NCBI GenBank assembly: GCA_964474445.1
Contig: CAYYSJ010000001.1
Span: 78,530-142,529 of the forward strand
Reading direction: 5' to 3'
DNA: 64,000 bases
Source of the DNA: an uncultured Gammaproteobacteria bacterium
Lineage (GTDB): Bacteria; Patescibacteriota; Microgenomatia; Levybacterales; UBA12049
Each line of letters begins with the position of its first letter. Positions within the stretch are counted from its first letter, which is position 1. The notes below the pieces were generated by a model. It was not told the origin of the DNA. It did not search any database and saw only the letters and a list, made by a program, of their open reading frames with translations. The position numbers were made by a program, and so were the translations under genes. Positions 7,109 through 47,585 of this stretch are shown one piece after another.

Positions 7109-7498
7109 TTATCTTTTCTTTAAGACTTTCCCTAAGAAAAATAAAGCAAGGCCTGCGGTAATTAAACCGCCTAGCACGATTTTTGTCTTATCAATTATGG
7201 GGACAAATTCTGCATGTTCACCAAGGATACGGATATATCCAAGTGGCTTAACTCCAATGCTTACTCCAATTCCCATACCACCTTGCTGTGGTCCAGGTTG
7301 TCCTGCAGTTCCAGCCTCTTTTTGTGGATTTATGCCTCCTCCGCCTCCACCTTTGATAGAAATCGATGCAACGGGAATAAGGGTAAGACCATTTTGTTTG
7401 ATAGGATCTCCTAAAATTGCCTTTATATTTGCACTCTTCTGAATTTGATCAACAATTTTTTGTATTAGCTCATCAGGTTTCATAAACTCATGATACAT
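7109..7498 (-). CDS. GerW/YtfJ-family (sporulation protein YtfJ-like) protein
   Basis: ILGDPIKQNGLTLIPVASISIKGGGGGG ... GGMGIGVSIGVKPLGYIRILGE matches the YtfJ/GerW pattern (IGDPVETPDGS...GFGFAAGG...GGGVSITPIAFL); C-terminal TM + KKR. Confidence 0.6.
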   Translation of the reverse strand: MYHEFMKPDELIQKIVDQIQKSANIKAILGDPIKQNGLTLIPVASISIKGGGGGGINPQKEAGTAGQPGPQQGGMGIGVSIGVKPLGYIRILGEHAEFVPIIDKTKIVLGGLITAGLALFFLGKVLKKR

Positions 7499-7591
7499 TT
7501 GTAGTACAAATCATTTGAAAGAATTATATGTAAAAATGTTTAGAAGGATATAGAAATATAATTGGATTCTATACTCGTTTCTTATTGATAT

Positions 7592-15991: not shown

Positions 15992-16348
15992 TTATTCTGG
16001 AGATTCAGTTGCCTCTGCGGCTATTTGTGATACCTTTAATTTATCTTTCAACTGAGCTGTGCGTTCCCACTGAGTTTGTATCTCATTATTTCTTTGTAGC
16101 ACTCTAGTAAAGGTATCTTTTGTATCTGCTTGAGAAGGAATTTCTCCTTGTATATTCTTTATAACACTCGCATTTGAACTTCCTGCTTTGGATAAAAACA
16201 CCATTCCAACAACAATACAAAGAAGAGATGGGAGTAAAAGAAGAGGAGTACCCCCAGTATCCAAGCTTTTAATGAAAAGATAGGCAAGATACAATCCTCC
16301 GACAGTAAGGATGAGCCCTAAAAAAGTTTTTAGTACTATTTGTATCAT
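15992..16348 (-). CDS. small membrane protein, hypothetical
   Basis: Two N-terminal TM helices then charged tail; fills gap upstream of deacetylase gene. Confidence 0.4.
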   Translation of the reverse strand: MIQIVLKTFLGLILTVGGLYLAYLFIKSLDTGGTPLLLLPSLLCIVVGMVFLSKAGSSNASVIKNIQGEIPSQADTKDTFTRVLQRNNEIQTQWERTAQLKDKLKVSQIAAEATESPE

Positions 16349-16363: not shown

Positions 16364-17320
16364 TTAAATGCTCTCTAACCAACTAAGCAAGTATTTTCCT
16401 GTTCGGCCGCCGGGCCTTAATCGATAGAGAAAATATCTATTATTTTGCGGGTGATCAATACCTGGAATGGTTGATGTTGCAGAGGTGAATCCTGTTTGCC
16501 TGACGATATCTACTGCCTGTTGGTCAAATGCTCCAAATGGGTATGCAAAAGAGATAACTGGTTTGCGAATAATGTCTTCCAGCATTTTTTTGCTTTGAGC
16601 TATTTCATATTGAGCAGTAACAAGCTTTTGCCCTTTCAACCATACATGATGGACTGTATGTGCTCCAATTTCAACTAATCCATCATTTGCAATTTCAACA
16701 AGCTGGGAAGTCAGCAAATGGTTCGATCTATTTAAAAATCCTGCAATAACATACTGTGTTGCTTTTGCATGATATTTTTTTAGGATTGGGTAAGCATCTG
16801 TATAAAAATCTCTATAGCCATCATCGAATGTCAAAACAATCGGTTTTGGAGGAAGTTGGGTTTTTCCATCAAGTGCATCCGTTAACTCTGCATGGGTCAT
16901 AAAAGTATATCCTGCTTCCTGCAGTGTTTTGACTTCTTGTTCGAGTGTATAAGGAGTTGTATTGAGAGCAATTCGTTTCGTATCTCCTTTATCTTGCACA
17001 TACTCTACATAGTGGTACATAAGAATTGGAATATGAACACTTTCTGGGAGTTTTATTCCTTGTACAGAACCTGATATATGTGCTCCAAGTACCTTATTTT
17101 GTTGATTTACCGTTTGTTGAACATCTGAAGGGATAGCATTTTGCTGGGTTTCCATCGCCTCCTCACCAGTAAGTGAGGAATCATATGAGTTATTCTTGTT
17201 GTATAAGAAAAATCCAACGTTTGCTACAGCTAAGAGAACAGCAAGACTAAATAAGAAAGTAAGTTTTTTCGTAAACAATGAGTGTTTTCTTTTCTTGTGA
17301 TTAGTTTTTTTCTTAGCCAT
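16364..17320 (-). CDS. polysaccharide deacetylase (NodB-homology domain)
   Basis: N-terminal anchor; TFDDGYRDFYTDAYPILKKY (TFDDG motif 1), H-containing motif 2, paralog of 51073..51996. Confidence 0.8.
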   Translation of the reverse strand: MAKKKTNHKKRKHSLFTKKLTFLFSLAVLLAVANVGFFLYNKNNSYDSSLTGEEAMETQQNAIPSDVQQTVNQQNKVLGAHISGSVQGIKLPESVHIPILMYHYVEYVQDKGDTKRIALNTTPYTLEQEVKTLQEAGYTFMTHAELTDALDGKTQLPPKPIVLTFDDGYRDFYTDAYPILKKYHAKATQYVIAGFLNRSNHLLTSQLVEIANDGLVEIGAHTVHHVWLKGQKLVTAQYEIAQSKKMLEDIIRKPVISFAYPFGAFDQQAVDIVRQTGFTSATSTIPGIDHPQNNRYFLYRLRPGGRTGKYLLSWLESI

Positions 17321-17380: not shown

Positions 17381-19474
17381 CTAAAAAAGAAACAGTCTGA
17401 GTGCACGTAGTTTTTCTTTAATACTACCTTGTTTAAGAAACATAACTGCCAATTTTTCTCTGGAGGTCAAAAGACGAGAGAAAACATACAAAACAATACA
17501 CGCAATCAATGCATATAGCAGGAATAATCCATTGGTATGTGCATCTTTGTTCTGTGTACCCAAAACAGATTTCACGGTATCATGGGGAAGAACAGCTGGT
17601 GATGAAGGTTGACTTGTTGGGACAAACAGTGGAGCAAGCTGGAAATAGCTTGTGCTTGATGCACTCAGATTGGTATTCTGATTTCCTGTCGTTCCAGTAA
17701 CTGTTGCAACAGCTGAGTATGCTCCACTTGGTGCATTTTGGGACAGAACAATTCCTGTGGTGAGTTTTATACCTTTTCCTGCATCAATATCTCCCAAAGA
17801 AAATTCTGCACCTCCCATATTTTGTCCATCATGAAACAGAGTAAGTTGTAGGTGTGATCCATAGACTCTTCCTGTTCCAGAATTTTTTATTTTTACAAAA
17901 AATGTCACCGTATCCCCTGGTAATATATAGATGCCAACATTGTTTTTTTGTTCAATCCATAATTGTCCACCATCTTCTTTTGAACTTGACGTGTTAGAAG
18001 AGGAATTGTTTTGTTGCTGCGTTGGTTGTGGCGTAGAACTTGGTGATGGTGATGGCGTTGGTGTTGGGAAAAGGTTTGCTTGTCCAATATCTCCCCGTAC
18101 ATCCCCAAAAATATTAATAAACCCAAAGAATCCACGACTGTTTATAAAATCTGCATTAAGAAAATTTGTTATTGAAACAACAGAGTATGCATTACCTGTT
18201 GAGATATTTCCATTCCCTCCTTGAATTGTGTTATCTCCTGTATTTGCCTGGGAAGTAATACTGTTGGTAACAGTTGCATTATTTGTACTATGCTCAGCAA
18301 GTGAACACTCTGAACAAGGTAGTGAATTTTTTGCGTTGCTCTGCATTAGAGCAAAACTTTGTCCTCCTGTATGTGCAGAAAGATTTCCCCACCCGAGGAA
18401 TTTTCCGTTCCATGTACCAAATAGATTAATAAAGAGGTTGCCAAAGAATGCATTCCAAAATGTCGTATTTGTCACATTTGTTGTTTGGATAACACTTGTT
18501 GCATTTCCTGTTTTTATTGTTGCAGAATCTGTTGCAACAATACTGTTATTGCCTGTGTCTGTCGTGCTTATAATGGTGTTTGTCACGGATGCTGTATTTG
18601 TTGTTGCAATATCGGTCTTTGCGGAAGCAGAGCTATCCGGAGTATTTGCTATATTTGGAAGTAAAATATTGCCTGTCAGATTGCCATAAATATTGAGTGT
18701 TATTACGTGAATTGTTGAATCAATTAATGTGACATTTACGGTATTCATGAGGGACGTAACTGCATATGCATTTCCTGTATTAATGATAACCTGTCCACTT
18801 CCTGTTGCTGTATTACTTCCCGTATTTGCTGTTGTTGTCACTTGATTAGAAACAGCAGCAGTATTATTAATGTCTGCAACTTTTACGTTATACGTTGGGT
18901 TATTTGACGGGTCTTGGGAAATAATTTGTTTTGCAAGAGCAGTTGGATTGGAAAGATCAAGATTTCCTTGTTTATCGACAAACAAATTAATTGTTTGATA
19001 GACAACTTGAGAATTTACTGTCGTTGTATTAACGGTATTTGTCACAGACATTTCTGAGATACTCTTTCCTGTTTGTATTGTTGTGTCTGTAGGATTACTG
19101 GTTGGTGTTGGAGAAGCTGTCTTTGCAGAAGGAGTACTCTCTGATGCACTTTCTGTTGCTGATGGGGTGATTGTAATCGTATTTCCACCAGTATTTGCCT
19201 CTGATGTTGCGCTTGTTGTTGCTGTTGCACTGTTTGTTGCATTAATGGTCACCATTGGAGTAGGTGTTGGTGTATCAGAGATATTTTGTTTTTGTGTCTG
19301 GGTCGGGGATACACTTGAACTAGGACTGGGTGATGGTGTTGTACTTGGATCTGTTGTTGGAGTAGCTGTTACCGCTGAGGGCGTAGAGATTGGATTATCA
19401 GCAAAAACCTTCAGAGGCAATACGCTCTGAAATAAGAGGAAAATAATAATTACAATACTAAATATTTTTTTCAT
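17381..19474 (-). CDS. large cell-surface protein: signal peptide, T/S/P-rich linkers, >=3 copies of ~50-aa NTG-N...TGNA repeat, CARDB/DUF11-like domain, C-terminal TM anchor
   Basis: Likely start MKKIFSIVIIIFLLF (ORF-track start codon upstream appears to be GTG); repeats e.g. TNNATVTNSITSQANTGDNTIQGGNGNISTGNAYSVVSITNF; C-terminal LFLLYALIACIVLYVF + basic region. Confidence 0.7.
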   Translation of the reverse strand: MKKIFSIVIIIFLLFQSVLPLKVFADNPISTPSAVTATPTTDPSTTPSPSPSSSVSPTQTQKQNISDTPTPTPMVTINATNSATATTSATSEANTGGNTITITPSATESASESTPSAKTASPTPTSNPTDTTIQTGKSISEMSVTNTVNTTTVNSQVVYQTINLFVDKQGNLDLSNPTALAKQIISQDPSNNPTYNVKVADINNTAAVSNQVTTTANTGSNTATGSGQVIINTGNAYAVTSLMNTVNVTLIDSTIHVITLNIYGNLTGNILLPNIANTPDSSASAKTDIATTNTASVTNTIISTTDTGNNSIVATDSATIKTGNATSVIQTTNVTNTTFWNAFFGNLFINLFGTWNGKFLGWGNLSAHTGGQSFALMQSNAKNSLPCSECSLAEHSTNNATVTNSITSQANTGDNTIQGGNGNISTGNAYSVVSITNFLNADFINSRGFFGFINIFGDVRGDIGQANLFPTPTPSPSPSSTPQPTQQQNNSSSNTSSSKEDGGQLWIEQKNNVGIYILPGDTVTFFVKIKNSGTGRVYGSHLQLTLFHDGQNMGGAEFSLGDIDAGKGIKLTTGIVLSQNAPSGAYSAVATVTGTTGNQNTNLSASSTSYFQLAPLFVPTSQPSSPAVLPHDTVKSVLGTQNKDAHTNGLFLLYALIACIVLYVFSRLLTSREKLAVMFLKQGSIKEKLRALRLFLF

Positions 19475-19527
19475 TTTTATACTAAGGGGAGAGATCACTC
19501 CCTCCCCTTAAAAAAAAGAGAAAGGTA

Positions 19528-19986
19528 TTAATTACCTTCTCCTAAATCTGTTGTTTTTACAACTGTTGTATTAACAACATTGGATACAACTGATTCTGCG
19601 CCTGCATTTCCTGTTTGCACAGAACCACCATCAACTTCTCCTGCATTAACTGTATTCTTTCCAGTTGAAGCAGAGATCCCAACTAAATTCAGGACTAATC
19701 CTGCATTGTTAACAGTTACATCACTGCCGAAGAAACTTTTTGAATCTACGGAAGTAGTGTTAAGAATGTTTTCAACTTGTGCAACTGATATTGCATTTCC
19801 CGTTGTTACAGAACCTCCGTCAACAAAATCTCCATTAAGAGAATTATTGCCTGTGTCTGAAGTGGTAAGAACACCATTTACGACAACTCCTAGATTAGAA
19901 ACATTTGTTTCTGCAAATGCTGGAACGATTGTTCCAAGTACGAGTGCTGCTGATGCTGCTGCGACTGCTAATTTTTTTACGATCAT
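19528..19986 (-). CDS. secreted protein consisting of signal peptide plus two copies of the same NTG-N...TGNA repeat
   Basis: Strong SD (AAAGGAGGTGA); signal MIVKKLAVAAASAALVLGTIVPAFA; repeats ETNVSN...TGNNSLNG...TGNAISVAQVENILNTT and paralogous second copy. Confidence 0.65.
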   Translation of the reverse strand: MIVKKLAVAAASAALVLGTIVPAFAETNVSNLGVVVNGVLTTSDTGNNSLNGDFVDGGSVTTGNAISVAQVENILNTTSVDSKSFFGSDVTVNNAGLVLNLVGISASTGKNTVNAGEVDGGSVQTGNAGAESVVSNVVNTTVVKTTDLGEGN

Positions 19987-20019
19987 CTTTGATTCACCTC
20001 CTTTCTTTTAAATATTAAA

Positions 20020-20051
20020 AACCGACGTTTTCTGAAACTAGTACGTCGGTT
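20020..20051 (-). terminator. rho-independent terminator-like hairpin (9-bp stem AACCGACGT/ACGTCGGTT) followed by T-run on minus strand
   Basis: Perfect 9-bp inverted repeat with 14-nt loop; minus strand reads hairpin then TTTTAATATT, directly upstream of the SD of 19528..19986. Confidence 0.45.
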
Positions 20052-20226
20052 ACGAAAAATGAATAAAAAGTTCTATATACATATTGCTTTGTTGTTAACT
20101 TTTTCATTTACAATAAAAAAACACCAGAACACATATGTGTTTGGTGCCTCCGTTAACGGTCAGCAATTACTTTGTAATTATAAGTTATAGAATGTTATTG
20201 TTATCTTGTCAATAACCTAGGGAATA

Positions 20227-20403
20227 TTACTCTTCTACGAGACTAATTATAGGTTTGCGAATATTCTTCTCTGTAATTTGAGTTACTTGGTTATTTTGGA
20301 TAATGATCTCGATACTTCCCCAGCCATGAATACTATTGATAGATTGGGATAGTTCTTCGAGAATCTTTTGTGAAAGTTGCGGTGAGATTTTCTTTCCTGC
20401 CAT
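20227..20403 (-). CDS. YezD/DUF2292-like small protein (58 aa), not in ORF track
   Basis: MAGKKISPQLSQKILEELSQSINSIHGWGSIEIIIQNNQVTQITEKNIRKPIISLVEE; matches the YezD pattern (YGS-V-I-V-DG-V-QIE-TEK-R); weak SD. Confidence 0.45.
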   Translation of the reverse strand: MAGKKISPQLSQKILEELSQSINSIHGWGSIEIIIQNNQVTQITEKNIRKPIISLVEE

Positions 20404-20486
20404 ACTGACTTCAGGACAGGAAGAAGCTTACCTATGCTAATGCTTAATGCATAATTTGTCAAGCGTTAATAAGATAAATGAATACG

Positions 20487-20885
20487 CTACTTAGCTTGGA
20501 GCACATGAAAGAGACTATTAAAGAAAGATTGAATGTTATTCCAAAGGTTTTGAAGCTGAGGTGCACGGTGAGGATGTTCATCTCCCTTTATTGGGCTAGG
20601 AGATGAACTTGCCATTGGAGATGGAGAAAGCGTTGTTCCTGTTGCATCATTTGTTACCGATGATGTTTTGCCATTGTTTTGTATATGGTAATCTCCTGGC
20701 TGAGTACTATCAAAATTTTGCGTGTGCCCATTTACGTTGGTCTCAACATGAGTTGAAACACTTCCAGACCCATCAATTGAGGTATGTACGTCTACATCTG
20801 ATGAAGCGTTGCCTTCATGTATCTCTGCAAATGCAGGAGTGGTGAAAAGCAAAAAAACAGTTGTAAAAAGAAATAGGTATTTCAT
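20487..20885 (-). CDS. small secreted protein, hypothetical
   Basis: Signal peptide MKYLFLFTTVFLLFTTPAFA, S/T/H-rich mature region, no TM. Confidence 0.5.
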   Translation of the reverse strand: MKYLFLFTTVFLLFTTPAFAEIHEGNASSDVDVHTSIDGSGSVSTHVETNVNGHTQNFDSTQPGDYHIQNNGKTSSVTNDATGTTLSPSPMASSSPSPIKGDEHPHRAPQLQNLWNNIQSFFNSLFHVLQAK

Positions 20886-20919
20886 TGTTCGTTCATTCTA
20901 GCACCTTTATGCAAGAAAT

Positions 20920-20941
20920 TTGTCAATATGTGTATTGACAA
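20920..20941. promoter_or_regulatory. perfect 8-6-8 inverted repeat TTGTCAAT-atgtgt-ATTGACAA in divergent promoter region
   Basis: Between divergently transcribed 20487..20885 and 20997..21572; shares 9-mer TTGTCAATA with a second palindrome at ~20194..20216. Confidence 0.3.
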
Positions 20942-20996
20942 GTACCATATAAATTGTTATAAAAAATCAATCTCTGCCCCCCTGCCTCATAGTTTA

Positions 20997-21572
20997 ATGA
21001 AAATACAGACATATATTATTAGTGGTCTTGTCCTCGCATTGTTTCTCGCTTGTTTGGGGATTACCCATTCATTTGCTGTCGAGAATGTGCATGTAAGCAA
21101 TACTGCAACAGTTCAAAACTCCGTTACCACAACCTGTGGTACAGGAAACAATACTGTAACTGGCAATGGTACTATCAAAACAGGGAATGCAAATTGCCAA
21201 ACTGTTATCCAAAATGTTGTCAATACAAATATTGTTGTCACCTCCCCTACTCCTACACAGACACCGACATTGATACCGACGCTTACCATTACATCTTCTC
21301 CTACTCCTACCCCAACACCAGGACAGAACGGTTGCACAAGTAATTGTGGAGGGAATAATAGTGGTGGCAGCAACAATAACAGTGGAGGCTCATCAAATAA
21401 TTCATCTTCCAATACCCAATCTACTTCACCAGCTCAGGCTGTTTTGGGAACGAGTGACATGGCTGCAACAGGAACCTTTACTAATACACTTATGGCAATG
21501 TTTGCTTTTGTTGGTTTTGGGTTTTTGTTTGCAGGATCATACAATCTTCGAAAAGATCTCGTTAGCAAATAA
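20997..21572 (+). CDS. surface protein: signal peptide, one NTG-N...TGNA repeat, TPTPT linker, S/N/G-rich region, C-terminal TM anchor + basic tail
   Basis: Start at MKIQTYIISGLVLALFLACLGITHSFA; repeat ENVHVSNTATVQNSVTTTCGTGNNTVTGNGTIKTGNANCQTVIQNVVNTN; C-terminal LMAMFAFVGFGFLFAGSYNLRKDLVSK. Confidence 0.65.
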   Translation: MKIQTYIISGLVLALFLACLGITHSFAVENVHVSNTATVQNSVTTTCGTGNNTVTGNGTIKTGNANCQTVIQNVVNTNIVVTSPTPTQTPTLIPTLTITSSPTPTPTPGQNGCTSNCGGNNSGGSNNNSGGSSNNSSSNTQSTSPAQAVLGTSDMAATGTFTNTLMAMFAFVGFGFLFAGSYNLRKDLVSK

Positions 21573-21645: not shown

Positions 21646-22290
21646 ATGTTTCCCCTCTGGGACTCCATCCATACGAATAAATTTCCCCTGGTAAACATCA
21701 CGCTTATTATTGTTACCGGATACGTTTTTTTTAAAGAAATCTCAGCGGTAGACCCAAATGCATTTATCCAGCAGTACGCTCTTATTCCTTCCCTTGTAAG
21801 TCTTAGTAACTTCGCAACATTTTTTCCTTTTTTAACTGCAATATTCCTTCATGGAGGATGGCTTCATATTTTGTCCAATATGTGGTTTTTATGGGTATTT
21901 GGTGACGATGTAGAAGGATACTTCGGGCATTTTTTCTATCTTATTCTATATTTTCTTTCTGGGATTGCTGGAAATATTGTGCAATTTCTTCTTATGCCAC
22001 ACAGTAATATCCCTATGCTTGGAGCATCTGGTGCGATTGCCGGGGTATTGGGAGCATATTTTGTCTTGTTTCCCTACTCTAAAGTGAAAACGTTCCTTCC
22101 CATTTTTTTCTTTTTTACGATTGTTGATATTCCTGCTCCTTTTATGCTTGGTTACTGGTTTTTGTTGCAACTTGTTTCAGGTGCTGCTTCTCTACCGCTC
22201 ATGGGGGCAGTTGGAGGTGTCGCATTTTTTGCACATGTAACAGGTTTTCTCGTAGGTGCAATTGTAGGGACTTCATCGAAAGAAAGGTAA
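21646..22290 (+). CDS. rhomboid-family intramembrane serine protease
   Basis: 6 TM; HGGWLHILSNMWFLWVFG, catalytic GASGAIAG (Ser) and downstream His in TM6. Confidence 0.85.
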   Translation: MFPLWDSIHTNKFPLVNITLIIVTGYVFFKEISAVDPNAFIQQYALIPSLVSLSNFATFFPFLTAIFLHGGWLHILSNMWFLWVFGDDVEGYFGHFFYLILYFLSGIAGNIVQFLLMPHSNIPMLGASGAIAGVLGAYFVLFPYSKVKTFLPIFFFFTIVDIPAPFMLGYWFLLQLVSGAASLPLMGAVGGVAFFAHVTGFLVGAIVGTSSKER

Positions 22291-23302: not shown

Positions 23303-25210
23303 TTACCGATACTGGGATATGATGTCGGAAACTGAGGTGAATTGTGCTTTTGGTTTGTCGCTGTTGTTAATGTCAAACATATCCAAATGTCCATAACCAC
23401 CATAGCTTTGTGCGTCAAATTGGTTTGCAAAATCTAAATGTGCTCCAATCATTGCATTCATTGCAGCTGTTGAGAATTTACTCATAAAGTCTGCGTTTTC
23501 TCCAAGGGGGTTACTGCCTGGATCAAAATTCCATTCTGTAATACCAACTGGAATATCAAATCCTAAATCGTTATGGACCCAACTTTTTACTTCTTGGGTA
23601 ACGGTGGTGTAAGTTTGTGCTTGTGCAGGTCCACAATTTCCTGAGCTATTAAATCCATCTGTTGCATTGTCACAAGGATACCAATGGAAACTTACGGCAT
23701 CTGGGTAAACGCCTGATGCTTTGACGCCATGTAAGAAATTTTGCATATAACAATCTCCTGGCTGTGCACCAGGAAGGGGTGCAGGTCCAGAATAGTAGCA
23801 ATCATTGCCTTGATCGTTATAAGTAACTGGGCCGATAAATTTTGCATTTGGATTGATTTTCCTAAGTTCAGTAACGAATTCATTCCAGCGGCTAAGATAT
23901 GTTTGAATATCCATATGGGTAACTACAGTGCCATTGTCGTTATATTCATCCAAATCTGGCTCATTGCCTATTTCATATAAGTTACATCTATTGCCAGCAT
24001 ATGCAACTACCCTCTTTGCAAAATCAAGATCTGTTTCTAACTTTCCGGTATCAATGTCAGTAATTCGTATGTGTGTTGAGCTTGGATCAGTATTATTTGC
24101 TGCATTTGTTCGGATATCCTTGAGTACGATCAGACACTGCATACCTGATTTTTTAATTGCTTGCAGTCTTGTTTCAAGCTCATATTGATAGGGTGCATAT
24201 GGCGTGACAGTCGTATATTGTGCCGTTGGCGTGTCATATTCATGAGAGTTTGGTTGAGATGGATTTACTATAGTCTGGCCAGTAGTTGGATCAATTTTTA
24301 TTTGAATTTGAGGATTTGTTCCAAGCGTTATCCTATGTCCATCGGACAGACTGTAATGGAAAATAAACATTCTCATGAGAGAAAAATGATTATTGAGCAA
24401 TGAAGGTTGGATGATATTATGAGGATCAGTGTCGAAATTATCTTCTGTATAATCCTGACTATCATTACTTCCAAATAAGTAAGATGATACATTATTTTTC
24501 CATAGTTGTTGACCAGGAAGTAGCCCAAGAGTTGTTGGTGGCACTGTCGTTGGTGTTGGTGTACTTGTTGGAATTACCGTTGGGTTTGGCGTTGGGGTTG
24601 CTGTTGGACTCACTGTTGGACTCACTGTTGGAGTTCCTGTTACTTGTACCCCACCGACCAGCATAACGTCATCAATATATATAGTTACGAGAGATGTATT
24701 TAGCCAGTTCTTCAGTTGTATTCCACCAATTGTTTGGCCACTTGGATTAAGCATTGACATTGGCACACTAATATGGACCCAGCCATTTGCCAATGTGTTT
24801 GTAACATTGTTTTGGGAGAGTTGTATCTCGTTAATCCAACTTCCCTGCGGATCAACAACGAGAATAGCAAAATCTTCAAGTGATTGTCCTTTCGTATTTA
24901 CATTCCAGTCAATAGAAGTATATTGATTGGATGTAATTGGTGTGTTTGCTATGAAGTTGATTGCCCCCCAGCCCTGGTATGCAATTGAGTATGAGCAGGG
25001 TGCAGAGGTGTATGTTGTTGTATCGCAGCTATTTCTGCTGGTAAACCCAAATGAATTATCAGTGAATCCACTCTCCACCCCATTGGTATACACCGGAACT
25101 GATGGTGTGGCAGCAAATACAGCACTAACTACTGGAGAAAAAATATTTTGTAGCAAGAGACCAATAATAAAAAGTATTGCTAAAGTAAATCTATGTTTTA
25201 AATACCTCAT
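23303..25210 (-). CDS. secreted glycoside hydrolase, clan GH-A (GH5/GH30/GH39-like) with N-terminal beta-sandwich domain and T/P-rich linker
   Basis: Signal peptide; linker TGTPTVSPTVSPTATPTPNPT; catalytic acid/base motif EIGNEPD (NEP) and nucleophile motif GITEWN typical of (beta/alpha)8 clan A hydrolases. Confidence 0.6.
   Translation of the reverse strand: MRYLKHRFTLAILFIIGLLLQNIFSPVVSAVFAATPSVPVYTNGVESGFTDNSFGFTSRNSCDTTTYTSAPCSYSIAYQGWGAINFIANTPITSNQYTSIDWNVNTKGQSLEDFAILVVDPQGSWINEIQLSQNNVTNTLANGWVHISVPMSMLNPSGQTIGGIQLKNWLNTSLVTIYIDDVMLVGGVQVTGTPTVSPTVSPTATPTPNPTVIPTSTPTPTTVPPTTLGLLPGQQLWKNNVSSYLFGSNDSQDYTEDNFDTDPHNIIQPSLLNNHFSLMRMFIFHYSLSDGHRITLGTNPQIQIKIDPTTGQTIVNPSQPNSHEYDTPTAQYTTVTPYAPYQYELETRLQAIKKSGMQCLIVLKDIRTNAANNTDPSSTHIRITDIDTGKLETDLDFAKRVVAYAGNRCNLYEIGNEPDLDEYNDNGTVVTHMDIQTYLSRWNEFVTELRKINPNAKFIGPVTYNDQGNDCYYSGPAPLPGAQPGDCYMQNFLHGVKASGVYPDAVSFHWYPCDNATDGFNSSGNCGPAQAQTYTTVTQEVKSWVHNDLGFDIPVGITEWNFDPGSNPLGENADFMSKFSTAAMNAMIGAHLDFANQFDAQSYGGYGHLDMFDINNSDKPKAQFTSVSDIISQYR
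24540..24650. repeat. coding tandem oligonucleotide repeats (ACTGTTGGACTC / GTTGGNGTT units) encoding T/P/V/S linker
   Basis: gttggcgttggggttgctgttggactcactgttggactcactgttggagtt within glycoside hydrolase gene; similar TPTPT-coding repeats at ~21240..21330. Confidence 0.6.
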
Positions 25211-46727: not shown

Positions 46728-47585
46728 TCACTTGACCGGCTTAGCTACAACAATAAGACGTTTCCAGGTCGTACCAGGAGGCCAACAGGTTTGTAAAACA
46801 ATTTTCTCGTCCGTATCTTTTTGTGCATTCACAAGAAGTGATACATCATTTGCATCAAGAATCTTGGTATCTGTTACTTTGTAGTTATAGCGGTAGTTGT
46901 TAAAGAATAAATCAATATCATCTCCTACATTTAAGTCTTTCAGTAAATAAAAAACAGCGTTATACCTTCCAACATTCCAAAAACTATCCGTTGAGTGAGC
47001 AAAGTAGAATGATGTGCCTTTCATGCCAGGAAAGACTGTTCCTTTCGCATGAGCAATTCCCTGTTTCAATGCAGCTAAATATTCTGATTCATTACTTGAG
47101 TCAACGTTGATAATCACTCGAGAGCTTGCTCCAATTTTTGGAATAACGATACTAAACAATGTATCTGGAGGGGTAATGATTTCTGAGGTGGTTGTTTTCA
47201 GATTGCCAAGAGGACTTTTTGTTTGTGGCGAGGCAACAACATACTGTACTCCTCGAATAGTGTCGATGTGAAATTTGATTTCATAAAAAAGTGCAGGGCC
47301 AATAGTCATGCCTATTCCAAAAAGCGCAAAAAGAATAAGGAAGTTTCCGATAGATTTCAAAATAAGCAATCTTCGATACACGTTACTTTGTAACATTTCT
47401 TGAAACGAAAGTGCTTCTCCTTGTTGAATGGTCTGTTCTGCTTGTACCGTATAGGTGGAAGAGGTAGGTTGAGACGAAGAAGTATACTCTGTCTTTTCCC
47501 CTTTTCTTCTCTGCATAGTCATGAATATATTGTACCAAAAAGAGAAAAAGGATGGATTTAAAAAATTAGATTTGAGGTTAATCAT
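46728..47585 (-). CDS. sortase-family transpeptidase (membrane-anchored)
   Basis: N-terminal TM anchor; catalytic His (FYFAHSTDS), F..L..L..GD.I.L...Y.Y.V pattern, TLxTC-type Cys motif KIVLQTCWPPG and downstream Arg (TTWKRLIVVAKPV). Confidence 0.6.
   Translation of the reverse strand: MINLKSNFLNPSFFSFWYNIFMTMQRRKGEKTEYTSSSQPTSSTYTVQAEQTIQQGEALSFQEMLQSNVYRRLLILKSIGNFLILFALFGIGMTIGPALFYEIKFHIDTIRGVQYVVASPQTKSPLGNLKTTTSEIITPPDTLFSIVIPKIGASSRVIINVDSSNESEYLAALKQGIAHAKGTVFPGMKGTSFYFAHSTDSFWNVGRYNAVFYLLKDLNVGDDIDLFFNNYRYNYKVTDTKILDANDVSLLVNAQKDTDEKIVLQTCWPPGTTWKRLIVVAKPVK

Follow-up and report, generated by a model that had tools for sequence, protein, structure and literature searches.

Surface proteins built from a shared 52-residue module in a conserved gene cassette of Patescibacteria

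The chaplins of Streptomyces (ChpA-H) are paralogues that share a small secreted domain, a hydrophobic stretch of ~40 aa; some carry extra copies of the domain together with a LAXTG-type signal for class E sortases, and the short members, which lack an anchor, are secreted and assemble on the cell surface. In fimbrial operons such as pap and fim the small-subunit gene stands first and is followed by a stem-loop or leaky terminator ahead of the minor or anchor genes; the first gene product is usually far more abundant than the next, and the ratio of subunit to anchor is high. Many genes for surface-layer (S-layer) proteins have a long structured 5' leader and a terminator of their own. Patescibacteria (ultra-small bacteria of the candidate phyla radiation, CPR) account for a large share of bacterial diversity and are mostly uncultured, and to our knowledge almost nothing is known of the composition of their cell surface, the site of their presumed symbiotic life. 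Here we describe three paralogous genes, A, B and C, from a 64,000-nt stretch of a Levybacterales genome (assembly GCA_964474445.1, contig CAYYSJ010000001.1, positions 78,530 to 142,529 of the forward strand; "the window", within which all positions below are counted), whose products carry one to four copies of a 52-residue module. They belong to a lineage-wide set of cell-surface proteins of Patescibacteria, namely of their Levybacteria/Microgenomates part. Repeat-built surface proteins with sortase or transmembrane (TM) anchors are familiar as a general kind; what is new is the domain family that the module represents and the combination of genes in the cassette.

The module and its family

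An initial annotation of the window had recognised three surface-protein genes sharing an Asn/Thr/Gly repeat of about 50 aa. The genes, taken from the open reading frame (ORF) listing, are where it had placed them, and the repeat is real and conserved in position, both by a profile free of window sequences and across 14 homologues of B.

17381..19474, minus strand: gene A, 697 aa (start codon ATG at 19474)
19528..19986, minus strand: gene B, 152 aa
20997..21572, plus strand: gene C, 191 aa

The ATG at 20997 appears the likelier start of C than 20928, where a longer ORF begins, because a promoter-like TTGACA-17-TATAAA sits inside that longer frame. The GC content of the window is 34-41%.

The profile was a hidden Markov model (HMM) made from 300 module units of homologues and zero window sequences, and when it was run on the 1092 six-frame ORFs of the window it matched A, B and C alone, at the following places.

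19169..19246, minus strand: A module 1, first arm, aa 77-102 (HMM positions 2-27; split copy, 20.8 bits)
19022..19087, minus strand: A module 1, second arm, aa 130-151 (HMM positions 30-51)
18725..18877, minus strand: A module 2, aa 200-250 (51.0 bits; predicted local distance difference test score, pLDDT, >90)
18458..18613, minus strand: A module 3, aa 288-339 (38.5 bits)
18146..18295, minus strand: A module 4, aa 394-443 (57.6 bits)
19753..19911, minus strand: B module 1, aa 26-78 (42.6 bits)
19561..19722, minus strand: B module 2, aa 89-142 (42.7 bits)
21084..21233, plus strand: C module, aa 30-79 (44.4 bits; contains Cys47 and Cys67)

Residue-shuffled versions of A, B and C (600 shuffles) reached at most 6.2 bits against the same HMM, and the module is therefore not compositional low complexity; genuine low-complexity linkers are present beside it, and N, T, S, G and P abound in all three proteins. 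The module is thus real and, within the window, specific to A, B and C.

B contains two modules and C one. For A the initial annotation had counted "3+" copies, and three are indeed full, while the fourth is split by a 27-aa T/P/S insert; the true repeat unit of A is ~90-100 aa and consists of the module plus a spacer of 35-50 residues with the rough motif h-x-h-I-N-h-F-G-x-W-x-G-x-I. Across the 14 B homologues (35-70% identity) the invariant residues of the module are N, TG-N, TG-A and N. The first arm of the module follows the pattern NxAxVxNxVxTxA-N-TG-x-N and the second I-x-TG-N-A-x-A-x-S-x-V-x-N-V-V-N-T-N. The second arm (HMM positions 37-53) also occurs by itself, directly after the signal peptide, in the family of a small secreted protein encoded beside B (E-values of 1.8e-7 in locus L042, where it reads TITTGNANAQSSVRNEVN, 7e-6 in L063 and 3e-4 in L133; handles beginning with L denote related loci), and the C-like proteins of L003 and L004 start with the second arm alone as well. 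Judged by sequence, the small secreted protein looks to be a fourth, partial paralogue.

The structure of A was modelled with AlphaFold2 from a 90-sequence alignment, with a mean pLDDT of 79.5, values above 90 in the modules and values below 50-56 in the linkers between units. Each modelled unit runs from a 19-residue strand through the TGxN turn to two short strands around a variable tip, and continues through the TGNA turn into an 11-residue strand and a short strand, followed by three spacer strands. Mean-field direct coupling analysis (DCA) of 878 unique modules (effective number ~800) yielded an antiparallel ladder of coevolving columns with i+j ~62 (pairs 9-52, 11-52, 13-50, 15-48, 17-46, 22-40, 24-39, 26-37 and 28-32), which was reproduced on 783 module-plus-spacer units. 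The ladder points to a single long two-armed beta-hairpin (or arch), predicted to be kinked and to place its TG motifs opposite each other. The tip is predicted to be a variable, insertion-tolerant loop; one face of the hairpin would be lined with conserved small and Asn residues and the other would be variable. In most long homologues, too, the first module is split, by a hairpin-tip insert of ~25 to ~200 residues. The two cysteines of C, Cys47 and Cys67, fall on module columns 19 and 44 (sum 63, in the register of the ladder), and a cysteine pair in the C-like protein of L063 falls on columns 19 and 42, also on the ladder, which fits a cross-hairpin disulfide.

A beta-solenoid or beta-roll fold, as first suggested from the TG spacing, does not agree with these results: the strands of the model are 11-20 residues long, the units are separated by linkers of pLDDT below 50-56, and the DCA ladder fits one long hairpin (or arch). 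Bead-like hairpin domains on flexible linkers fit the model better. A fold search with the model of A detected no structural relative of the repeat region and matched no known beta-helix protein.

No named family accounts for the module, as the initial annotation had supposed. Scans of Pfam-A, NCBIfam and PHROGs gave no match to the module of A, B or C, Pfam scans of homologues (14 of B, 10 long ones and 10 with tandem arrays) found none for their modules, and searches of PDB sequences with A and with the module profile were negative. Nor did we find a description of the family in the literature on DUF2292 or on sortases, DUF11, S-layers and surface proteins of Patescibacteria/CPR.

The initial annotation had also proposed searching protein databases with the repeat profile. 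When a profile of 24 module units was compared with 1.84 billion representative proteins clustered at 50% identity, 2008 clusters bore the module at E<=1e-3, 1073 at E<=1e-10 and 84 at E<=1e-30. Two architectures dominate, one A-like (650-1200 aa, with 4-6 module stretches) and one B-like (146-172 aa, with exactly two modules); in a third, rarer one 4-9 modules follow each other closely in tandem, some of these proteins being very acidic. Tandem-array proteins such as P0022, P0113 and P0152 consist of a signal peptide and 4-5 closely packed modules and have neither spacers nor DUF11 nor an anchor, and acidic loops such as DEDVEGGEITTGDADA might bind cations. The paralogues had been called variable in copy number, and this is true between paralogue classes; within each class the number of modules is constant across genomes, at two in B-like proteins and usually 4-5 HMM stretches in A-like ones.

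A search with A itself returned 184 proteins at E<=1e-5, the best match other than A being 43-46% identical, and a homologue search with the module alignment added 4 further proteins. Where homologues of A carry names, these all read "hypothetical protein", the sources given being Patescibacteria group bacterium, Candidatus Levybacteria and, once, Saccharimonadales, and the related genome loci come from metagenome-assembled genomes (MAGs) of Ca. Beckwithbacteria and Levyibacteriota. Three cassette-bearing MAG contigs (L003, L004 and L007) bear Gammaproteobacteria or Pseudomonadales labels. L007 is syntenic over 16 kb with the Levyibacteriota contig L006, with identical gene order, and because of this match its label is probably wrong; the labels of the other cassette-bearing MAGs of this kind are probably wrong as well.

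Anchors, sorting signals and the conserved cassette

The initial annotation had taken the proteins to be secreted or anchored at the surface, and their ends bear this out. Each of the four extracytoplasmic proteins of the cluster (A, B, C and the small secreted one) starts with a classical signal peptide whose cleavage site is of the AxA type, the endings being VFA, AFA, SFA and AFA, and A and C have C-terminal hydrophobic anchors.

19912..19986, minus strand: signal peptide of B, residues 1-25, unusually conserved among B-like proteins
17636..17962, minus strand: predicted immunoglobulin (Ig)-like beta-sandwich of A, DUF11/CARDB-like, aa 505-613 (model of A)
17558..17566, minus strand: VLG box of A, residues V637 L638 G639, located 7-10 residues ahead of the TM helix
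17465..17536, minus strand: predicted C-terminal TM helix of A, aa 647-670 (model), with a basic tail down to the stop codon
21441..21569, plus strand: sorting signal of C, with VLG-TSD-MAATG, a hydrophobic stretch at aa 165-180 and the basic tail NLRKDLVSK
21441..21449, plus strand: VLG box of C (sequence)

B consists of its signal peptide and two modules, and has no anchor. Twelve positions of the B-like signal peptide (KKLA..GASAALLL.SAVPAFA) are at least 90% conserved, the mature parts being ~40% identical (alignment A1). This signal peptide loosely resembles TasA/SipW-type signals, and the NCBIfam models gave no match to it.

In A the signal peptide is followed by a T/P/S-rich stretch, the four module-plus-spacer units, a T/P linker and the DUF11/CARDB-like Ig domain, after which come the VLG box, the TM helix and, on the cytoplasmic side, a tail of ~27 aa that is basic and amphipathic and is conserved among close homologues. 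In the model of A, residues 505-613 adopt an Ig-like beta-sandwich fold; PF01345 was found at the equivalent position in seven of ten long homologues (E 1e-5 to 1e-22), and in A itself there was no match at E<=1. The model places helices at 647-670 and then at 672-696, and A is predicted to be anchored by its C-terminal TM helix.

In C the signal peptide is followed by the single module with its Cys pair and by a stalk rich in T/P and N/S/G; the protein ends in a sorting signal of the sortase type, its C-terminus reading ...VLGTSD-MAATG-TFTNT-LMAMFAFVGFGFLFAG-SYNLRKDLVSK (tail also given as AQAVLGTSDMAATGTFTNTLMAMFAFVGFGFLFAGSYNLRKDLVSK); the anchor-region peptides are ...AVLGTSDMAATGTF... in C and ...KSVLGTQNKDAHTNG... 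in A. C thus has all three parts of a tripartite signal, pentapeptide, hydrophobic stretch and basic tail, with M rather than L at the first position of the pentapeptide; in its relatives the pentapeptide is LAATG, LADTG, LAGTG or LPGTG. It is the sole ORF of the window in which an [LM][PA]x[TAS]G signal is followed by a TM stretch, and the NCBIfam sorting-signal models matched neither A nor C. Among 134 A-like proteins, by comparison, a sortase pentapeptide [LM][PA]xTG precedes the TM helix in one, and A itself has the VLG box only.

In 87 of the 134 A-like proteins a VLG box is found among the 45 residues that precede the C-terminal TM helix, typically at ~15 residues from it, against 1.6% of background segments. 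Beyond these proteins, the box (x-V-L-G-[ATSE]) stands 8-42 residues before the C-terminal TM anchor in many surface proteins of Patescibacteria, a ~40-fold enrichment, whether or not an LPXTG/LAXTG pentapeptide comes after it. The box directly precedes the pentapeptide in proteins encoded next to sortases, including an unrelated SpaA-like protein, and the composite VLG..LA[AD]TG or LPGTG signal is found on sortase-adjacent proteins in L004, L008, L010 and L132.

L132:717-4007, L133:9241-12564, L008:9470-10135, L010:4167-4853, L004:2902-3366: VLG-box proteins at other loci

Elsewhere in the window, a 133-aa ORF (7112..7510, minus strand) ends in ...RILGEHAEF...KIVLGGLITAGLALFFLGKVLKKR, that is, in an ILG/VLG motif with a TM stretch and a basic tail, and may be another protein with a VLG-type anchor.

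The genes that accompany A, B and C were compared across 17 related loci.

20487..20885, minus strand: small secreted protein gene (132 aa), which heads the cassette strand
20227..20403, minus strand: DUF2292 (YezD-like) gene, 58 aa, without signal peptide
21646..22290, plus strand: rhomboid gene, after C
46728..47585, minus strand: sortase gene of the genome (Pfam Sortase E=5e-19), 25 kb from the cluster

Four of these genes (small secreted, DUF2292, B and A) share the minus strand, and C is divergent on the plus strand. B stands directly upstream of A wherever the pair is visible (window, L002, L004-L010, L035, L042 and L131-L134), and the whole series from the small secreted gene through DUF2292 and B to A recurs in L003, L006, L007, L042, L063, L132 and L133. 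The small secreted protein, which has orthologues in L003, L006, L007, L042, L063, L129 and L132-L134, and the DUF2292 gene, which always lies between the small secreted gene and B, are therefore conserved partners, as their position in the window had first suggested. The DUF2292 protein scores 28.5 bits against Pfam PF10055 (cutoff 22), and its core GWGSVEIxIQDxxVTQITEKNIKKP is highly conserved; it falls short of the OscA equivalog (20.5 against a cutoff of 85), and a search of PDB sequences with the DUF2292 profile gave no match.

Co-occurrence with a sortase, which the initial annotation had proposed to check, was found in eight other loci (L003, L004, L008, L009, L010, L063, L132 and L133), where a sortase gene lies within ~3 kb of the cassette. 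It is usually preceded by a gene for a C-like or other VLG-tailed, T/P-rich protein: the C-like gene is immediately upstream of it in L003, L004, L009 and L063, the C-like gene and sortase together stand upstream of the cassette in L003 and L063, and other VLG-tailed proteins come before it in L132 and L133. At its fullest, the cassette runs C-like, sortase, small secreted protein, DUF2292, B, A, from which the window departs by the reversal of C and by a sortase that stands 25 kb away; in L004, L008, L009 and L010 the arrangement is permuted. The sortase of the window fits none of the classes scored (C, D, E, F and GN). It is the probable processing enzyme for C and most likely links C to the cell wall.

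The initial annotation had counted the rhomboid protease among the associated genes as well, and here the comparison speaks against it, as no rhomboid homologue was found in any of the 17 related loci. The adjacency therefore looks local to this genome, in which the rhomboid follows C at the place where related loci have the sortase after the C-like gene. The rhomboid is not a rhombosortase either (19.3 bits against the TIGR03902 cutoff of 84); it also stays below the GlpG cutoff and has a generic rhomboid domain.

Several further genes lie near the cassette. In L006 and L007 the cassette sits between tgt-queA and ClpB, without secretion machinery nearby. Downstream of A in the window and on the same strand are, at 60 nt, a polysaccharide deacetylase with an N-terminal TM segment (16364..17320, minus strand) and a gene for a 118-aa membrane protein (15992..16348, minus strand), neither of which was seen at the other cassette loci. 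A glycoside hydrolase of GH39/GH5-like type, which is secreted and has a T/P linker, is encoded near the cassette both in the window (23303..25210, minus strand) and at L008:3527-4852, a proximity that could reflect a link to surface glycans or coincidence. Just downstream of the A-like gene of L010 there is a TasA/camelysin-like protein (Peptidase_M73; L010:8322-8921), followed by a protein in which an SGSMSPT signal-peptidase-like motif is fused to a lamin-tail domain (L010:8976-10544), and the two are possibly a tasA-sipW-like pair.

RNA and expression signals around B and A

The DNA between DUF2292 and A contains a series of predicted signals, listed here in the direction of transcription of B.

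20184..20212, minus strand: promoter-like site for B (TTGACA, 17-nt spacer, TATAAC), directly after the DUF2292 stop codon
20145..20165, minus strand: 21-nt conserved leader element UGCUGACCGUUAACGGAGGCA, hairpin P1 (RNAalifold)
20114..20148, minus strand: intrinsic-terminator-like hairpin T1 with U run (predicted fold)
20017..20050, minus strand: second leader hairpin ACCGACGU...ACGUCGGU with U run, just before the B ribosome-binding site
20001..19997, minus strand: B ribosome-binding site GGAGG (sequence)
19510..19543, minus strand: terminator-like hairpin including the B stop codon, followed by U8 (predicted fold)
19482..19511, minus strand: GC-rich 13-bp intercistronic hairpin, ending 7 nt before the A start codon

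The promoter-like hexamers are conserved in an alignment of five loci. The 16-mer core of the leader element is unique in the window, where none would be expected by chance, and was found exactly in L003, L006, L007, L009, L035, L042, L063 and L129 and with one base changed in L132 and L133; wherever the flank is long enough the element lies between DUF2292 and B, a position seen in 11 loci. When metagenomes were scanned for the 16-mer, ~115 of 120 matches were due to chance or unrelated, for example one human-gut species. RNAalifold folds the element into a 7-bp hairpin, whose paired bases do not vary except in the closing pair. P1 and T1 overlap, by the 3' arm of the first and the 5' arm of the second, and the 3' arm of T1 covaries with the variable part of its 5' arm, including a change from A-U to G-C in L133, which also has a hairpin similar to the second one of the window leader. 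The leader (20114..20165) has no Rfam match at gathering thresholds, and the E-value mode gave chance-level matches only (E>=0.39). A leader peptide was considered and rejected, as the 8-codon ORF of the window is not conserved at other loci. From its layout, the leader of B may be an attenuator or small riboswitch, or may encode a short small RNA.

Between B and A, a hairpin of -21 to -39 kcal/mol (z -3.7 to -7.4) was found in 11 of 11 loci tested (window, L002, L006-L010 and L131-L134), that of the window having -21 kcal/mol and z = -4.3. The sequences of these hairpins differ between loci while the pairing is kept, one arm being of purines and the other of pyrimidines. The GTG start of a 705-aa database version of A falls within the window's hairpin. 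Given that the arrangement of leader, terminator and hairpin is that of fimbrial operons such as pap, we infer by analogy that B would be the major component and A the minor one.

A possible surface assembly and its relation to known systems

The reading that we prefer, tentatively and with somewhat less than even confidence, is that the cassette encodes a cell-surface coat or fibril system of chaplin-like logic, with the module displayed by those paralogues that are anchored and with the free B as major subunit. A would sit in the membrane and extend outward from it by its Ig-like DUF11 domain, T/P linker and four bead-like module-plus-spacer units, and C would carry its one module on a long stalk, linked to the wall by the sortase. 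The anchored A and C would then serve as bases to which the free, two-module B binds, as it would bind to itself, contacts between modules through the conserved face building up the coat or fibrils. B would be made as the major subunit from its own promoter and up to its own terminator, under a conserved leader hairpin that competes with a terminator, and the very stable hairpin between B and A would damp expression of A. The half-module proteins might act as caps or primers, and DUF2292, a cytoplasmic protein encoded just upstream of the leader, could be the factor that reads it.

Several observations weigh against this picture. That modules assemble with one another is something we purely infer, and B is small for a coat protein, at ~13 kDa when mature. 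AlphaFold gave a poor model of B alone (pLDDT 50, from a 14-sequence alignment). DCA contacts 48-73 and 56/57-74 point to burial of the conserved face, which in A may thus be covered by its own spacer strands and so be unavailable to B. The promoter and terminator calls are matches to consensus only, the sortase is not adjacent to the cassette in the window, L006, L007, L131 or L134, and the small secreted protein of the window itself matches the half-module weakly (E=0.14; aa 20-35, EIHEGNASSDVDVHT, degenerate).

Alternatively, A, B and C might be independent adhesins by which an episymbiont attaches to its host, each an alternative binder whose variable face and insert-tolerant tip contact host ligands. 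We consider this unlikely, though a serious contender: orthologues are ~40% identical and differ strongly on the non-conserved face and at the hairpin tip, stalks with an anchor, an Ig-like domain and T/P linkers are typical of bacterial adhesins, some loci have SpaA/SdrD-like and fn3 surface proteins in the vicinity, and cultivated Patescibacteria are described as obligate episymbionts (PMC11623550). However, B without an anchor could not tether a cell alone, the strict order of B before A, the fixed module numbers and the dedicated RNA structures argue for assembly in set proportions, and the cassette lies among housekeeping genes such as tgt and queA rather than in variable regions. A two-component S-layer, with A as a membrane stalk like SlaB of Sulfolobales and B, with or without C, as the outer lattice, seems to us distinctly improbable. 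B does look like a separately and strongly expressed gene, with its long structured leader and terminator, and a survey has stated S-layers to be prevalent in Patescibacteria (bioRxiv 10.1101/2024.05.28.596244); but mature B, at ~127 residues, is far below known lattice-forming S-layer proteins, and the Pfam and NCBIfam scans found no SLH, CWB2 or other S-layer anchoring domain.

We give still less credence to a curli-like functional amyloid or beta-solenoid fibre, in which beta-arches formed by the modules would stack, nucleated by A or C and with B for fibre subunit. In its favour, Asn, Gly and Ala are abundant in the module, its Asn positions are conserved and small residues line one of its faces, the pair of anchored and free paralogues resembles CsgB and CsgA, and coevolution at constant i+j cannot by itself separate a hydrogen-bonded hairpin from a beta-arch. 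On the other hand, Curlin_rpt did not match, hhalign gave the module profile a probability of 0.05% against a CsgA sequence entered by hand, the long strands and low-confidence linkers of the model do not suit a stack, and no csgEFG-like genes are among the annotated neighbours in the window and 10 loci. Mere Asn/Thr/Gly-rich composition or a chance likeness of neighbouring ORFs, which the overall composition and the true low-complexity linkers might suggest, is refuted and has next to no probability left: full modules score 38-58 bits and even the split copy 20.8, as against the ceiling of 6.2 for the shuffles, positions are invariant across homologues of 35-45% identity, the modules are modelled with confidence and the coevolution ladder is coherent.

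The coat or fibril reading can be carried further, to a self-assembling surface polymer, so far unknown, that would be near-universal in one large branch of the CPR. Its hairpin modules would join by strand or face complementation, A and C serving as bases, B as repeating subunit and the proteins with the second arm alone (the small secreted one and, in L003 and L004, the C-like ones) as primers or caps; B would be set by a new cis-acting RNA switch, the 21-nt hairpin against the terminator, which DUF2292 may read, as its first function, and the VLG box would be a new protein-sorting element of these bacteria. We regard it as improbable that all of these parts hold together.

Whatever the assembly, the survey contributes to CPR cell biology and to protein domain discovery a lineage-wide conserved set of surface proteins, some 2000 clusters annotated as "hypothetical", with a confident structure prediction for the module. 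The division of labour among one membrane-anchored, one wall-anchored and one free paralogue is testable, the family offers a handle for antibodies, cryo-electron tomography labelling and heterologous expression, and there are further leads in the small, invariant RNA element and its attenuator layout, the conserved intercistronic hairpin and the VLG motif at C-terminal anchors. Were the proteins an ordinary set of adhesins, the gain would be reduced to the new domain family.

Compared with described systems, the pap and fim operons are alike in operon layout only, and the cassette has neither chaperone-usher machinery nor a pilin fold. CsgA and CsgB of curli resemble A, B and C in that the repeats are imperfect, keep Asn, Gly and Ala positions and follow a strand-turn-strand logic, and in having a pair of paralogues that could serve as base and major subunit; however, the unit is 52 aa as opposed to ~19-23 aa, its pattern differs from S-X5-Q-X-G-X-G-N-X-A-X3-Q, the predicted form is one of bead-like hairpin domains rather than a continuous solenoid, and the host bears a sortase. 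PF07012 (Curlin_rpt) was not found at E<=1 in A, B, C, the 14 B homologues or the 10 tandem-array homologues, nor at E<=0.01 in the 10 long homologues. DUF11 (PF01345)/CARDB accounts for the C-terminal domain of A only, the module being N-terminal to DUF11 and unrelated to it. The LPXTG/LAXTG proteins of Gram-positive bacteria resemble C in its tripartite signal and in having a sortase encoded by the genome, whereas the pentapeptide of C starts with M and follows a conserved VLG box.

The chaplins are alike in being a set of paralogues that share one secreted domain and divide into wall-anchored and free members, and both the MAATG of C and the LAATG, LADTG and LAGTG of its relatives are LAXTG-like. 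The likeness is one of system logic only, as there is no sequence relation and no Pfam family on the module region, and assembly, which chaplins display, is here a proposal. Unlike the chaplin domain, the module is a 52-aa, Asn/Thr/Gly-rich predicted hairpin; the largest paralogue, A, appears to be TM-anchored rather than sortase-anchored and has a DUF11-like domain, and to the set of paralogues the cassette adds DUF2292 and the RNA structures.

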